A stretch of 45,009 bases of DNA from a virus: UHGV virus genome UHGV-0208172. The stretch is one strand, 5' to 3'. Shown in pieces: positions 8,816 through 13,600 of this stretch. Below the pieces are notes generated by a model. That model saw nothing but the letters and a program-made list of their open reading frames with translations. It was not told where the DNA came from and made no database searches. Within the stretch, counting starts at the first letter, position 1. Each line of letters opens with the position of its first letter. The position numbers and the translations under genes were made by a program.

Positions 8816-11075
8816 AACGGTACACCTCTTCCCCGGCCCATGTTAGTGGGAATCCTTCGGCCCATTCAGGTAATGAGCATAGCAGATCACCCATCTCTTT
8901 AACCGTGTACTCCGGTGTGTCTGGTGTTTCGGCGACACATTCGTCATGTACGTGAAGTACAATTGGGTATCCCGCTGCCTCGACCGTCAGGAGTCCGTTA
9001 ACCAGTAAATCACGGCACAACGCTTGAATAATGTTTTCACACAATTTCCCGCCGTGGGTGTACAAAGTTGTCCACTGGCGGGTAGTCTGATTTTCGCCCT
9101 GGTACTTAATGCGAACGTTAGTTGTTACGCGCCCATCCTCGTCAGTTTCTTTAGTCACGCTTAAGCCTATGCCAGGGTAGGACATGATGCGCCCGGACGG
9201 CAACTCCACGCATAGCCACCAACCTGGCACAAAGTTACCCTGTCTGTCTTTCTCTTTAGTACGCCAGATGCGAATGGCCCTATCACCGTTGAGGCGGACT
9301 CTGGCCCCCGCCCAAAACTCTCGCCCCGGATTTCTGATTGCTGCAATTACCGAATCCTTAAGGTCGTTCCAGAATTTTACTGTTTCCGGATGAGCCTCCC
9401 GCCACATGCGCTTGATAGCATCGCAAGTGCGCCAGACTTCTTTAGGCAGCACATAAGAGGCCCGTTCATCTTTTTTACCGGGTTTCGGTGGTCGCTTAGC
9501 CTCCTGGATCCGCGCCCATTCATAACCTCGGGCAGTGGCGGCCCATATATGGTCAGGGAATGTTCCCCGCATTGTCTCCGTCATTTTAAAGAGGTCCAGA
9601 CCGTAAGTTTTAGCCATAGTCATGAAGGCCCCTACGCCCCCCTCGTAGCCAAGGCCGAGTTCGCAACATTTCCCGACCTGTCGCAGGTCCTTACGGGTGG
9701 CTTTCAGTTCTACAGGGTCCATACCAAACATCTTGCCCGCAGTGGCGCAGTAAATATCAATCCCCGCGCGGAACGTCTCAAGGGCAGACGTCTCCCCCGC
9801 CGTCCAGGCTAACCCACGCCCTTCCACGTTTGAGTAGTCGGCAACGAGCAACTTATTGCTTTTTTTCGGGATGATGCAACTGCGGACGGTTGAGGCCGTT
9901 AGTTTAGATACATCAAAACGGCGATGCGCTCGGCCCTTTAAAAGCAAATTGATGCCAAACGATAGCTGGTGCAGCCTGCGGTGCCACTCTTCGTCGGTCT
10001 CCCACTCAAAACGGACAAGCCCACCTTCGTTTTTAGGGTCGTCATGGTAGTACCCGCGCGACAGGTTCTGTGGTTGGAACGCTTTACCCGCAAATCGTAA
10101 AGTGCGCTTTGCCCCGCCGTACTGGATGCACCCACGTCGTCGTCCATCTTTGGACAGTCCTAGCAGGAGCGGTTTATATTTTGTCGACGCCGTGGAGGCT
10201 GCGCCGAGGCGCATCTCAATGATTGTACGCGCATCGTCGGGCAAGTCGTCGTCCTCTAATAAACCTTCGAGCGTTGCTTTCTGCGCATTATAAATATTGT
10301 AGGCCGGTGCCAGTTCCCGAAGGATTGGCAGGAAATCTTTGCCCGTTAGCTTCCCGCCGAACTTCGCGCGGGCCTCGTTTTTTAGCTCTTGCTTGTGGCG
10401 TTCAACCGCCGCTACCGCCGCCTCAGCAAGAGCCGTGTCAACAAAGAAGCCTCGGTCGTTGATTAGCTGGTCCAGCTCCAGTACACGGTCTTCGAATTCT
10501 GAGTTACCCCAACGCGGCAGCTTATGGAACACTTCACGCATCGCAGTGATGTCGCTCACGGCGTACTTGATAAACAAAGCCCACTCGTCCGGGTGCGTCT
10601 CAGCGGTGTAACGGCGGATTTTGTAGTTCTTCGGCGTGGGCTTAGAGAAACGCTTAATCAGCGCCTTGCCGCGTTTATCTTTCGCGTTGTCCGCGGACAC
10701 GCCCAGCACTTCGCACAACGCATCGAGCGACCCCGGCAGCGCGTGACGGAACGCCCAAATCATCGTATCAATGGTGTTACTTACCGGAATATCGAAACCC
10801 CAGCAGTGCTTCATGATGAGCCTGTCGAACATTGAACCATTGTGCCATACCATCTTGATGCGGCTGTTGGGCTTAACAAGGCGGCGTAGCGCGCGGTGCA
10901 AATCGCCTGGCATGTCGCTGCCGTCGGTGCAATCCCATACCTGCACAGGCTCGTCGTCAAAAGCATAGGTACAGATGAGCACTTCGGTTGACGGGTGTTC
11001 GGCGTAAGCGTAGGAACCGACTTTCTTCAAATCGGCTTCGGAGAATGTTTCAAAGTCCAGGTATAAGTAGCTCAT
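8805..11075 (-). CDS. family A DNA polymerase with 3'-5' exonuclease domain
   Basis: Exo I LDFETFS; pol motif A DYSNVEGR, motif B RQVGKCCELGLGYEGG, motif C HVHDE; likely start ATG at 11075 with RBS AAGGAAAAAG (track start 11129 is TTG). Confidence 0.9.
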   Translation of the reverse strand: MSYLYLDFETFSEADLKKVGSYAYAEHPSTEVLICTYAFDDEPVQVWDCTDGSDMPGDLHRALRRLVKPNSRIKMVWHNGSMFDRLIMKHCWGFDIPVSNTIDTMIWAFRHALPGSLDALCEVLGVSADNAKDKRGKALIKRFSKPTPKNYKIRRYTAETHPDEWALFIKYAVSDITAMREVFHKLPRWGNSEFEDRVLELDQLINDRGFFVDTALAEAAVAAVERHKQELKNEARAKFGGKLTGKDFLPILRELAPAYNIYNAQKATLEGLLEDDDLPDDARTIIEMRLGAASTASTKYKPLLLGLSKDGRRRGCIQYGGAKRTLRFAGKAFQPQNLSRGYYHDDPKNEGGLVRFEWETDEEWHRRLHQLSFGINLLLKGRAHRRFDVSKLTASTVRSCIIPKKSNKLLVADYSNVEGRGLAWTAGETSALETFRAGIDIYCATAGKMFGMDPVELKATRKDLRQVGKCCELGLGYEGGVGAFMTMAKTYGLDLFKMTETMRGTFPDHIWAATARGYEWARIQEAKRPPKPGKKDERASYVLPKEVWRTCDAIKRMWREAHPETVKFWNDLKDSVIAAIRNPGREFWAGARVRLNGDRAIRIWRTKEKDRQGNFVPGWWLCVELPSGRIMSYPGIGLSVTKETDEDGRVTTNVRIKYQGENQTTRQWTTLYTHGGKLCENIIQALCRDLLVNGLLTVEAAGYPIVLHVHDECVAETPDTPEYTVKEMGDLLCSLPEWAEGFPLTWAGEEVYRYAK

Positions 11076-11244
11076 TTCTTTTTCCTTAAATCCAGTGCCT
11101 TCGTTTCGCTTAATCTTATTTTCATACAATCACGGCAAATCCACACATGCCGGTGTCCGGCCCGGTAATCATCCGCGTACCACGGAAGCGGTTTGATATA
11201 GTGGTAAACGTGCTTACAGAAAAACATTATTTTCGACCCTTAGT

Positions 11245-11267
11245 AAAAAGGCCCAATGAAGGGCCTT
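11245..11267 (-). terminator. rho-independent terminator downstream of SSB-like gene
   Basis: AAGGCCC-TTCATT-GGGCCTT hairpin followed by TTTTT on - strand. Confidence 0.5.
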
Positions 11268-11286
11268 AGTTAAATTGATTCAGATA

Positions 11287-11913
11287 TTAGCGACGACGGC
11301 GTTCGCGGCGCGGTGCTTCATCTTCTTCGTCGTCTTCCAGGTCATTGACGCTTGCAGCGACTTTAGAACCACCGAACGCTTTACCTTCGCCGACGTATTT
11401 AATTGCCAGCAGGTTAACACCGAGAACTTTGTATTTCTGGCTGAACCAGATTTCTACGCTTACGTTGGCGACGCAACCGCTGTAAACCTGTTCGCCTTCA
11501 ATCTGTTCGCCGTCTACGTTGAAGTCCTGCTCTACCTGAGTCTCGCCTTTTTTAGAGGTTACAATCAGTGGCTGCTTCTGGGCCTTCGCCTTGAAGTAGA
11601 AGCCTTCCGGGAAGTCTTCAAACGGATTGTCGCGCTCGGCAATGTCTTTAATTGCGCATTTATCCATGTGCTTACCTTCTCCGTAGTTGGACTTCATCCA
11701 CTTCTCGGCGGCGGCTGCACCCAACGCCTCTTCAACTACAGCGTAAACGGTGTCGTAGAGCGCGTCGATTTGTGCGTGGTCAGACGGCAGGATGATAGTC
11801 GCGCTGTACTGGCCTTTAGTGATTGAGCCATCATCGTTTTCACGGTCTTTTTCGCGTTCGAATACGTTAACCCAGGCAGTGTTTACTTTACGCAGATTCA
11901 GTTTAATACCCAT
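11287..11913 (-). CDS. phage ssDNA-binding protein-like (DUF2815-type)
   Basis: 208 aa; acidic C-terminal stretch DLEDDEEDE followed by RRERRRR; position next to polymerase and Cas4-like nuclease. Confidence 0.6.
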   Translation of the reverse strand: MGIKLNLRKVNTAWVNVFEREKDRENDDGSITKGQYSATIILPSDHAQIDALYDTVYAVVEEALGAAAAEKWMKSNYGEGKHMDKCAIKDIAERDNPFEDFPEGFYFKAKAQKQPLIVTSKKGETQVEQDFNVDGEQIEGEQVYSGCVANVSVEIWFSQKYKVLGVNLLAIKYVGEGKAFGGSKVAASVNDLEDDEEDEAPRRERRRR

Positions 11914-11966
11914 CTTAATTTCTCGCTTTTAAGTTTACTCCGGGAACTGCCCGGCCAGTGATTAGA

Positions 11967-11995
11967 ACTATAATAGCTAACTATTCAGGTGTCAA
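11967..11995 (-). promoter_or_regulatory. sigma70-like promoter (class B: TTGACA-N17-TATAGT) upstream of SSB-like gene
   Basis: Read on - strand: TTGACA CCTGAATAGTTAGCTAT TATAGT. Confidence 0.5.
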
Positions 11996-11999
11996 CACT

Positions 12000-13241
12000 T
12001 TATTCCAAATCTTCTTCACTAACCTGATTCCAACCGAAGCTGTTAAAGTGATACCGGAAGAAGAACTGAAAGACTTCATCACACGTAAGCCAGGTGCCCA
12101 GTTCTTCTTCCGGTATCACTTTAACAGCTTCGGTTGGCGTCATGAGCACTTCTTTAGTCAGCTTGTCGCCGTAGAGTTCTGCTACTTTCTCTGCGTCTTT
12201 CCACGCACGGTTGCCCATCTTACCCTCCACCAGCTTGTACCCAGGAACTTTCTTACCGGAATGCAATGCGGCGGACATCGCTTTCTCAACCTTGTCGATG
12301 TGCTGGCGCAACAGCGGCAACTTCTCATACTCAACTACGAGTTGCTCCGGCGTCAGTTCCAGCACAAAGTCGTCTTCAAGTTCTTCCGCCAGTACCGCGT
12401 TAACGGTTTTTGTACGCGCGGCGCATTGTTCAGAGAACCGGCACCACTGACAACCATCGACCGACGGCCTGAAGTCCGATGCTTTCAGGTTCTTTTTACC
12501 GCGGAAATAAGCATCAAGCGCTAACAGTGCGCGTTTCTGCGCGAACTTAGCGAACAGTTCCAGACCTTCAACCGAGATGTCCCACTCCGACGCACCGCCT
12601 GCGTACGGCTGAAAGATGACCAGGCGAACAACTGTGATGTTATAACGTCTCTTGAGTCGGCGATAAACACCGAGAGCGTAAAGCATAAGCTGCTTGTTTT
12701 CTTTCGCTTCGACACGATGTCGTCCAGTTTTAAGGTCGCCGATGATTAGCATGTGTTCGTCGGTGTTAGCCAGTTCCTGCACGGCAACAAGGTCGGCCGT
12801 TCCGAACGTCTCAACGCCTTCATACCCCGGATGCAACACCTCAGTAAGATTTACCCGCATTTCCAGCTTGGCGTAAGTCGCTACGTCGATAATTGGTTTG
12901 CAGTAGTCGGTGTACTTGCGCACCTGCTCAATCATGTCCGCCGTAATCAGTACCGCGCCTTTCATCGGGCTAATTAGCGCCTTAATCTGGCCTTTACCCT
13001 CGTCCAGCACGTAAGCACCTACCTCGCGCTCTAATGGCAACGCAGTGCCTTTTATATACTGGTTTAGATGGACCTCAGCTATAGTGTGACATGCGGTTCC
13101 TGTAACGGCGGCTTTACCGGACGTGTTAGGAATATCTTTTTCACAGGCCAGGGATGCAGCGCAACTTAGCCACTTTTTAGCGCCAGACGGTGACAGTAAA
13201 GCGTGCACATCGTTATTGCCGCCGCGTTCCTTTAAAATCAT
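12000..13241 (-). CDS. Cas4/RecB-like PD-(D/E)XK nuclease with Fe-S cysteine cluster (DUF2800-type)
   Basis: 413 aa; N-terminal SPSGAKKWLSC, nuclease motifs DLVAV / IGDLKTG / QLMLYAL, C-terminal CQWCRFSEQC (C-x2-C-x5-C). Confidence 0.7.
   Translation of the reverse strand: MILKERGGNNDVHALLSPSGAKKWLSCAASLACEKDIPNTSGKAAVTGTACHTIAEVHLNQYIKGTALPLEREVGAYVLDEGKGQIKALISPMKGAVLITADMIEQVRKYTDYCKPIIDVATYAKLEMRVNLTEVLHPGYEGVETFGTADLVAVQELANTDEHMLIIGDLKTGRHRVEAKENKQLMLYALGVYRRLKRRYNITVVRLVIFQPYAGGASEWDISVEGLELFAKFAQKRALLALDAYFRGKKNLKASDFRPSVDGCQWCRFSEQCAARTKTVNAVLAEELEDDFVLELTPEQLVVEYEKLPLLRQHIDKVEKAMSAALHSGKKVPGYKLVEGKMGNRAWKDAEKVAELYGDKLTKEVLMTPTEAVKVIPEEELGTWLTCDEVFQFFFRYHFNSFGWNQVSEEDLE
12030..12137. 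repeat. perfect 39-bp inverted repeat (arms 12030-12068 and 12099-12137, 30-nt spacer) inside the nuclease coding sequence
   Basis: Arm 1 CCAACCGAAGCTGTTAAAGTGATACCGGAAGAAGAACTG is the exact reverse complement of arm 2. Confidence 0.85.
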
Positions 13242-13600
13242 CGTAAACTCTCCAAATACAAGTTTAATGCCTGTAGCTGTTCTTCTGTGGGAATGAAAGA
13301 ACCATCGCGATGTAAGTCGCTTAACTGTTGCAACATTCCTGCGAACTGACGTCTTGCGTCAACAGCGACCATGTGATGCTTTTCACTTTTATATATTAAT
13401 GTTTTCGGGTAATCCTCAAGTCTACCAGAAGATTTATTCACGCGGAGTGCTCGAGCTTCATGCACAATGTGGATGTACTTTTTGCCGTTTTGTAACACAG
13501 TAGCTACGCCGCTGTTCTTTCTGCGGTCACCGACGGTATAGACTTTGTCGCCACTACGCAGGTTAAGCCACCATTTATCGGTCATACCCTGTTCTCCCAC
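13238..13600 (-). CDS. hypothetical protein (120 aa)
   Basis: ORF in leftward replication operon, overlaps neighbours. Confidence 0.5.
   Translation of the reverse strand: MGEQGMTDKWWLNLRSGDKVYTVGDRRKNSGVATVLQNGKKYIHIVHEARALRVNKSSGRLEDYPKTLIYKSEKHHMVAVDARRQFAGMLQQLSDLHRDGSFIPTEEQLQALNLYLESLR

Follow-up and report, generated by a model that had tools for sequence, protein, structure and literature searches.

A perfect 39-bp inverted repeat in a Kagunavirus-like nuclease gene as the probable footprint of a single template switch

Introduction

Why should a protein-coding gene of a phage contain a long perfect palindrome? The question is raised by UHGV-0208172, a virus genome of 45,009 nt (hereafter "the window," meaning this whole stretch of DNA), in which two 39-nt arms of an inverted repeat lie at the 3′ end of a gene encoding a DUF2800-family nuclease. 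The original prediction, made from the sequence alone, suggested that the corresponding hairpin might serve in RNase III processing or retroregulation, as an origin of replication or nick site, or as a recombination hotspot; it also considered that a recent palindromic duplication had rewritten the C-terminus of the protein, and that the repeat was an assembly artifact. Here, we compare the locus with its homologs and argue, with moderate confidence, that the palindrome was left behind by one short inter-strand template switch, of the type known as "3-1-2-4," which occurred in phage DNA in vivo.

The window represents a Kagunavirus-like siphophage (Guernseyvirinae), its best GenBank relatives being approximately 87–92% identical to it across 70–83% of its length. 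The nuclease protein (P0001) is 100% identical to DAE48235.1, annotated as [quoted passage not shown] and thus the window is a third-party metagenome assembly (TPA) with no cultured isolate behind it.

Results

Structure and rarity of the inverted repeat

The arms of the repeat are exact reverse complements of each other (39/39 positions, zero divergence) separated by a spacer of 30 nt, and at 95% identity the repeat can be extended to 44 nt (12025–12068 and 12099–12142). Both arms are in frame within the 413-aa open reading frame (ORF), and the C-terminus of the encoded protein reads PTEAVKVIPEEEL – GTWLTCDEVF – QFFFRYHFNSFGW – NQVSEEDLE. In this respect every factual element of the original prediction, that is, the perfect match, the frame, and the spacer, was confirmed. 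The coordinates of the repeat and of the surrounding features are given in Table 1.

The claims that the repeat is far beyond chance and should form a very stable hairpin also stand. At the base composition of the window, the expected count of perfect 39-nt inverted repeats whose arms lie no more than 2 kb from each other is 3e-16. The repeat is the only one of at least 18 nt in the whole 45 kb (12-nt seed, arms at most 2 kb apart), and no inverted repeat longer than 19 nt was found in the homologous loci of 11 relatives, covering approximately 142 kb. The predicted folding energy of the palindrome is –84.7 kcal/mol for RNA (z = –11) and –49.7 kcal/mol for DNA (z = –13).

TABLE 1. Features of the nuclease locus, with positions in the window. 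A, S, and X are the consecutive native segments described in the text; rc, reverse complement. Junction microhomology was derived by enumeration of equivalent four-point solutions.
Feature	Position	Strand	Description
DUF2800 / PD-(D/E)XK (RecB/AddB/Cas4-type, Fe-S Cys cluster) exonuclease gene	12000..13241	-	413 aa; palindrome at the 3′ end
Arm 1, native segment A	12099..12137	-	gene nt 1105–1143, codons 369–381, PTEAVKVIPEEEL
Spacer, native segment S inverted	12069..12098	-	encodes GTWLTCDEVF, natively KDFITRKPGA
Arm 2, reverse-complement copy of A	12030..12068	-	encodes QFFFRYHFNSFGW
Replaced block, 69 nt	12030..12098	-	gene nt 1144–1212, codons 382–404; rc of ancestral nt 1105–1173
Novel junction 1, A / rc(S)	12098..12099	-	putative first template jump, 1 nt of microhomology
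Novel junction 2, rc(A) / tail AATCAGG...	12029..12032	-	putative return jump, 3 nt of microhomology (TGG on the gene strand, 12030–12032)
Sigma-70-like promoter TTGACA-17-TATAGT	11967..11995	-	11/12, near-consensus; unaltered by the event
Enc34-type (DUF2815 / gp2.5-like) ssDNA-binding/annealing protein (SSB) gene	11287..11913	-	Pfam PF10991

Comparison with homologous nuclease genes

In all relatives the nuclease gene has the same length, 1242 nt, and the palindrome is absent from all of their nuclease genes. Read along the gene strand, the 3′ end of the gene in the relatives consists of segment A (39 nt), segment S (30 nt, AAAGACTTCATCACACGTAAGCCAGGTGCC), segment X (39 nt, CCATGCGTCACAACGGCAGACGACAAACGGCCCGAGTGG), and the tail, whereas in the window the order is A, the reverse complement of S, the reverse complement of A, and the same tail. 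Segment A itself is unchanged, being identical in the relatives L019, L020, and L004 and conserved in all the others. The spacer reads AAAGACTTCATCACACGTAAGCCAGGTGCC on the plus strand of the window, while the relatives have it on the gene strand, and arm 2 sits over segment X, which natively encodes PCVTTADDKRPEW. Accordingly, the 70 nt at positions 12030–12099 are 100% identical to the opposite strand in each of L004, L019, and L020. Of the boundaries created by this arrangement, the one between rc(S) and rc(A) is not novel, as it is the reverse complement of the native A/S junction.

The most informative of these homologs is a near-isogenic native allele found in another sample (Logan contig L019 of 3684 nt, run ERR11438281; protein P0002). 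P0002 is identical to the window protein save for the replaced block and the substitution S328F, and the two genes differ at two of the 1173 positions outside the block as compared with 43 of the 69 positions inside it, which indicates one discrete event on a gene that is otherwise 99.8% identical. Indeed, when gene nucleotides 1144–1212 of L019 are swapped for the reverse complement of nucleotides 1105–1173, the resulting sequence coincides with the window over 1302 nt, save for two unrelated single-nucleotide polymorphisms (SNPs). A linear alignment of the two sequences contains 45 mismatches, while the template-switch model leaves none unexplained in the block. As a separate observation, the whole L019 contig is only 94.6% identical to window positions 9633–13313, with the SSB and polymerase parts being far more divergent; this pattern points to mosaic recombination boundaries inside the replication module.

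The wider set of homologs gives the same picture. The conserved motif KDFITRKPGAPCVATADDKRPE is present in all of them, and the window has GTWLTCDEVFQFFFRYHFNSFG in its place. The palindrome occurs in none of 195 related phage records, none of which covers positions 11990–12180 at more than 79% identity. Among the 120 best homolog clusters drawn from 5.8 billion proteins, 119 retain KDFITRKPGAPC[VI][AT]TADDKRPEW with point changes only, the exception being the window's own protein. The original prediction had proposed that homologs sharing the protein C-terminus in the absence of any inverted repeat would speak against it; the repeat is indeed missing from the homologs, but they do not share the C-terminus, encoding instead a different, conserved segment.

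We also searched for the two novel junctions directly. The 20-mers spanning them, A/rc(S) and rc(A)/tail, are absent from IMG/VR, and scans of JGI metagenomes and GTDB genomes yielded only chance matches of 20–26 nt in unrelated bacteria (L008–L018). One of these, in a metagenome-assembled Acidobacteriaceae genome (L018:4778–4802), is an exact 25-nt match spanning the A/rc(S) junction; given eight 20-mer matches in 596 Gb, one of them extending by 5 nt, we judged it to be a chance match as well.

These comparisons bear directly on the proposal of a selected functional hairpin, whether an RNase III or retroregulation site of the nuclease–SSB–polymerase operon, an origin or nick site, or a recombination hotspot. 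The great stability of the predicted RNA stem would suit such a role, as would its position 35 nt upstream of a strong sigma-70-like promoter of the SSB gene. A perfect double-stranded RNA stem of 39 bp would be a substrate of Escherichia coli RNase III, and regulatory side-effects are possible if the allele is real. However, a conserved element would be expected in the relatives, and the hairpin is missing in every relative examined and in the 99.8%-identical allele; moreover, its formation sacrificed a conserved motif of the protein. Rfam yields only sub-threshold matches to generic hairpins on both strands (the best one scoring 31.9 bits against gathering scores of 70–80), and the zero divergence of the arms fits a very recent accident and not a maintained element. 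The retroregulatory role thus finds no support in the 195 phage records, in the 119 other clusters, in Rfam, or in the fold of the native sequence (z = +0.2); the same holds for the role of an origin or nick site, as the relatives have ordinary coding sequence at this place and their loci are devoid of long inverted repeats, and for that of a recombination hotspot, the hairpin being found in neither the 195 records nor the 119 clusters. We therefore regard a selected function as extremely improbable: if the allele is real, RNase III would probably cleave the stem and the DNA could tend to form a hairpin, but as side-effects and not as a function.

A single inter-strand template switch

The arrangement described above is characteristic of a known class of mutations. 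In the four-point model, the nascent strand quits its template at point 1, switches to the complementary strand at point 2, and copies it back as far as point 3 (Löytynoja and Goldman, 2017, PMC5453318). Events of the "3-1-2-4" / "1-3-4-2" type create a new inverted repeat together with an inverted spacer and constitute 23% of the events identified between human and chimpanzee, and the inversion of the spacer, impossible by an intra-strand switch, implies an inter-strand one (PMC5453318). Template switching has been shown to make perfect hairpins and to invert loops in RNA genes (Mönttinen and Löytynoja, 2022, PMC8794818), and to homogenize arms, invert spacers, and rewrite codons in yeast coding genes (Abraham and Hazkani-Covo, 2021, PMC8604942).

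On the L019 gene the four switch points are 1143 → 1173, back to 1105, and → 1213, and hence their order is that of the 3-1-2-4 type (1105 < 1143 < 1173 < 1213), with the spacer matching the opposite strand of the relatives at 100%. The copied fragment is 69 nt long, where at least 10 bp is demanded of a high-confidence event, and the flanks differ by two SNPs in 1173 nt, where at least 95% identity is demanded. The short microhomology at the two junctions (1 nt and 3 nt) also speaks for a switch. The native sequence lacks a significant fold (–13.2 kcal/mol for the ancestral DNA, z = +0.23), and thus the hairpin arose de novo.

From this geometry we infer an event of replication or repair in vivo, most likely with the following course. 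A leading-strand 3′ end would stall after copying segment A, and the stalled end would anneal approximately 30 nt ahead on the exposed lagging-strand template, that is, on the complementary strand. Copying would then proceed backward through S and A for 69 nt, after which the end would return to the original template at the TGG microhomology, exactly 69 nt downstream of the departure point. The product of such a path would be A followed by rc(S) and rc(A), with a new perfect 39-bp inverted repeat, an inverted 30-bp spacer, and both the length and the frame of the gene retained. The suggestion that the C-terminus had been rewritten by a recent palindromic duplication was thus essentially right, and may be refined: nothing was inserted, and an inverted copy overwrote an equal length of the gene.

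Other rearrangements do not yield the observed sequence. Recombination with a divergent allele, which might be invoked for the 43 mismatches, was rejected, since reverse-complementing the neighboring sequence of the same phage gives the block with 100% identity. Plain inversions of S and X, of A and S, or of the entire 108-nt unit do not reproduce the observed order, so that only a copy fits, with A retained and rc(A+S) pasted over S and X.

The classical quasi-palindrome correction of Ripley, known from hotspots in rII of phage T4 and thyA of E. coli (summarized in PMC5453318), leads to the same outcome, a perfect palindrome formed by an in-register replacement of equal length. It requires, however, a pre-existing near-perfect inverted repeat, whereas in the ancestor of the window rc(A) and X agree at only 16 of 39 positions and the fold is not significant; on these grounds the correction was rejected, and its intra-strand version is in addition excluded by the inversion of the spacer.

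A two-step variant was also considered. In that scenario, an intra-strand switch of the Ripley type would first turn X into rc(A), yielding A-S-rc(A), and the 30-bp spacer would then be flipped by recombination or by a second switch between the perfect arms, so that a flip-flop between two C-terminal variants is possible. Flip-flopping of a spacer between perfect arms has been described in yeast genes (PMC8604942). Both orientations of the spacer are stop-free in frame (KDFITRKPGA and GTWLTCDEVF), and the in-register complementarity of ancestral X to A, though weak, has P = 0.02 and is accompanied by short TGA..CCA / TGG..TCA base pairing at the edges of the 108-nt unit. Nevertheless, this scenario needs two rare events where one suffices, its intermediate A-S-rc(A) is found in no database, only one orientation of the spacer is known in this background, and the ancestor lacks the near-perfect repeat on which the classical model depends. 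To our knowledge, a spacer of 30 bp is too short for recombinase-mediated inversion, being far below the known invertible segments of the Hin/Gin/Cin type. A two-step origin therefore appears very improbable to us.

Compared with the described events of the four-point class (PMC5453318; PMC8794818), the single inter-strand switch proposed here shares with them one reverse-complement copy of the adjacent sequence, the order 3 < 1 < 2 < 4, the perfect inverted repeat, the inverted spacer, and the identical flanks. It differs in being much longer (a fragment of 69 nt, arms of 39 bp, and a spacer of 30 bp) and in affecting a phage coding gene over a conserved motif, in an allele known from one metagenome assembly. 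The in-frame homogenization of arms combined with spacer inversion has a counterpart among the yeast coding events, namely, in REG2 (PMC8604942).

Effect on the nuclease

The assignment of the gene is well founded. The window protein matches Pfam PF10926 with 215 bits (cut-off 21), as well as PF12705 and PHROG 69 ("exonuclease"), and residues Cys27, Cys264, Cys267, and Cys273 are invariant in the family alignment. An AlphaFold model of the native protein (mean predicted local distance difference test, pLDDT, 92.7; predicted template modeling score 0.84) has Foldseek matches to the nuclease domains of AdnAB, AddAB, MGME1, Dna2, Exo5, and Cas4, and hence the label "Cas4-like nuclease" given in the original prediction is reasonable. 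A sequence search of the PDB retrieved no solved structure that covers the C-terminal domain; its matches were remote and confined to the nuclease core.

The event replaced 21 residues of a conserved and folded C-terminal motif. Gly390 (88%), Pro392 (90%), Asp399 (96%), Arg401 (92%), and Pro402 (71%), which form the family motif GKPxVAPxxDKRP, are all lost in the window, the frequencies being calculated over 90 homologs averaging approximately 30% identity, out of 11,474 returned by the search. The consequences are visible in the profile matches. The Pfam match to the native allele spans residues 13–402 and the entire profile (1–368 of 368, 226.3 bits), while that to the window allele stops at residue 376 and profile position 338 of 368 (215.1 bits), leaving the domain incomplete at the C-terminal motif; the full profile (368/368) is reached in P0002, L004, and L006. 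The PHROG 69 score falls from 402.8 bits for the native allele to 366.7 bits. In the native model, residues 371–400 have pLDDT of approximately 97 and form a helix (378–384) and two strands (385–387 and 392–396). In the model of the variant, pLDDT of residues 391–400 falls only modestly, from approximately 97 to approximately 85; as the shared multiple sequence alignment imposes the family fold on both models, this says little about destabilization. The lost residues and the weaker profile matches suggest that the variant nuclease is probably impaired.

A damaged allele might even be advantageous. The DUF2800 nuclease of coliphage Bas14 triggers the type IX retron Sen3, and phages escaping this defense carry missense or truncating mutations in the nuclease (bioRxiv 10.64898/2026.07.14.737667). 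Disruption of DUF2800 is thus tolerated and even selected in Bas14, which makes a damaged allele in a wild phage plausible. Kagunavirus nucleases of the DUF2800 family may face similar defense-driven selection. In the extreme version of this argument, the allele would have been favored, with the wrecked C-terminus of the nuclease, perhaps together with an RNase III-cleavable stem lowering its expression, allowing a Kagunavirus to escape a nuclease-sensing host defense. We consider this improbable. If true, it would mean that one replication error made an RNA hairpin and an immune-escape protein variant together, and would suggest that the duf2800-gp2.5-polA module is prone to large inter-strand template switches.

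Discussion

Points against a template switch in vivo, and the possibility of an artifact

Several observations weigh against the proposed template switch in vivo. The allele is a singleton with respect to the 195 phage records, the 119 other clusters, IMG/VR, and the JGI metagenome and GTDB scans. Exact look-ups of the nuclease and of its ProQ-like, 172-aa, and 90-aa neighbors found no independent (Logan) assembly of the source sample; a look-up of the SSB returned 291 blocks, this protein being too conserved to be informative, and a short-peptide search with the aberrant C-terminus scored four candidates without retrieving P0001 itself. The loss of residues conserved at 88–96% in a domain with pLDDT of approximately 97 should be deleterious, and is unexpected in a majority allele. 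The exact match in length, 69 nt for 69 nt, is not required by the mechanism. The event is also larger than those described in yeast coding genes, where arms do not exceed 16 bp, spacers are 2–5 bp long, at most five residues are changed, and conserved regions are rarely affected (PMC8604942); here, 21 residues are changed, including near-invariant ones. Finally, the open frame and the retained acidic tail could be taken as a sign of selection, but this is weak evidence, since 65% of equivalent mirror events along the nuclease gene would stay stop-free.

Some of these points are what one would expect if the palindrome were absent from the phage population and had originated in vitro, by polymerase template switching during library preparation or whole-genome amplification (e.g., multiple displacement amplification, MDA, of a virus-like-particle preparation), or by mis-assembly. 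The caveat of a possible assembly artifact, raised in the original prediction, therefore stands: the source is a TPA metagenome contig, the allele is a singleton, the event destroys highly conserved residues and so probably lowers fitness, and it is unusually large for a natural template switch in coding sequence. The contig appears to belong to a catalog built by MEGAHIT co-assembly per BioSample without read-level curation, with some of the source projects being virus-enriched (PMC8201803), and MDA has been applied to some virome libraries. Inverted chimeras are a familiar artifact of library preparation (PMC10908179); like the sequence of the window, they join a stretch to the reverse complement of its neighborhood via short complementarity.

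However, the described chimeras have a single junction, occur at low allele frequency, and are seeded by pre-existing near-perfect repeats (PMC10908179), whereas the window has two junctions and a precise return, forms the consensus of a 45-kb contig, and had no seeding repeat. Junction k-mers are nothing that a de Bruijn assembler could make up, and no inverted repeat able to confuse its graph is present in the native sequence. Both specific junctions, 69 nt from each other, must have occurred in the reads and have outcompeted a native path of equal length. The lack of any other such repeat in the 45-kb contig argues against a chimera-rich library, and no terminal or contig-end position is involved. 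Weighing both sides, we consider an artifact a serious but less likely explanation, and retain the single template switch in phage DNA as the preferred one.

Genomic neighborhood

The nuclease gene is followed by the SSB gene and a family-A DNA polymerase gene, in agreement with the known duf2800-gp2.5-polA module (PMC8093625). The promoter noted earlier upstream of the SSB gene is a reasonable assignment, the sigma-70-like element starting 5 nt past the nuclease stop codon, and its "AAGTGTTGACA" context, including TTGACA, is kept in five of six aligned relatives. A short GC hairpin (CCGGG...CCCGG) lies 3′ of this promoter.

The last residues of the nuclease (404–413, window positions 12000–12029, minus strand) form a tail ending in EEDLE. 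In the DUF2800 family this tail is acidic-aromatic, the alignment columns for residues 410–412 being dominated by Asp (45%), Asp (53%), and Phe (74%). A possible parallel is offered by T7 gp2.5 and gp4, whose C-terminal tails bind the polymerase.

On the plus strand, a 188-aa antisense ORF (11958–12524) holds the native peptide PTEAVKVIPEEELKDFITRKPGA. This ORF is a by-product of the inverted copy and not a gene, and could mislead gene callers.

The nuclease–SSB–polymerase interval is a hotspot of small insertions in the relatives (L004, L007, L021, L026, L029, L030; L020, and L001, which is fEg-Eco19). The insertions include ORFs of 62–83 aa between the nuclease and the SSB, and an HNH endonuclease ahead of the polymerase. 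The polymerase itself is approximately 1030–1050 aa long in L020 and fEg-Eco19 as compared with 723–774 aa elsewhere, which suggests an inserted element or an intein.

Implications

The palindrome is probably a one-off scar of replication or, less likely, an artifact, and not a conserved regulatory element; within the known class of template-switch mutations it is large but otherwise ordinary. It tells nothing new about phage regulation and opens no long-standing question. Its main use is as a caution in annotation and, should reads bear the allele out, as a clean example for textbooks. The catalog genome carries a nuclease gene that is probably impaired, and events of this kind mimic "hypervariable" blocks in alignments. 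A long perfect palindrome in a metagenome-assembled genome should not be annotated as an origin, a terminator, or a regulatory element before the relatives are compared. Should the allele prove real, it would represent a natural template switch in a phage that is unusually large and clean: one step turned unstructured coding sequence into a perfect 39-bp hairpin and exchanged 21 amino acids without loss of frame, illustrating how a complex structure and a change of many residues can arise together.

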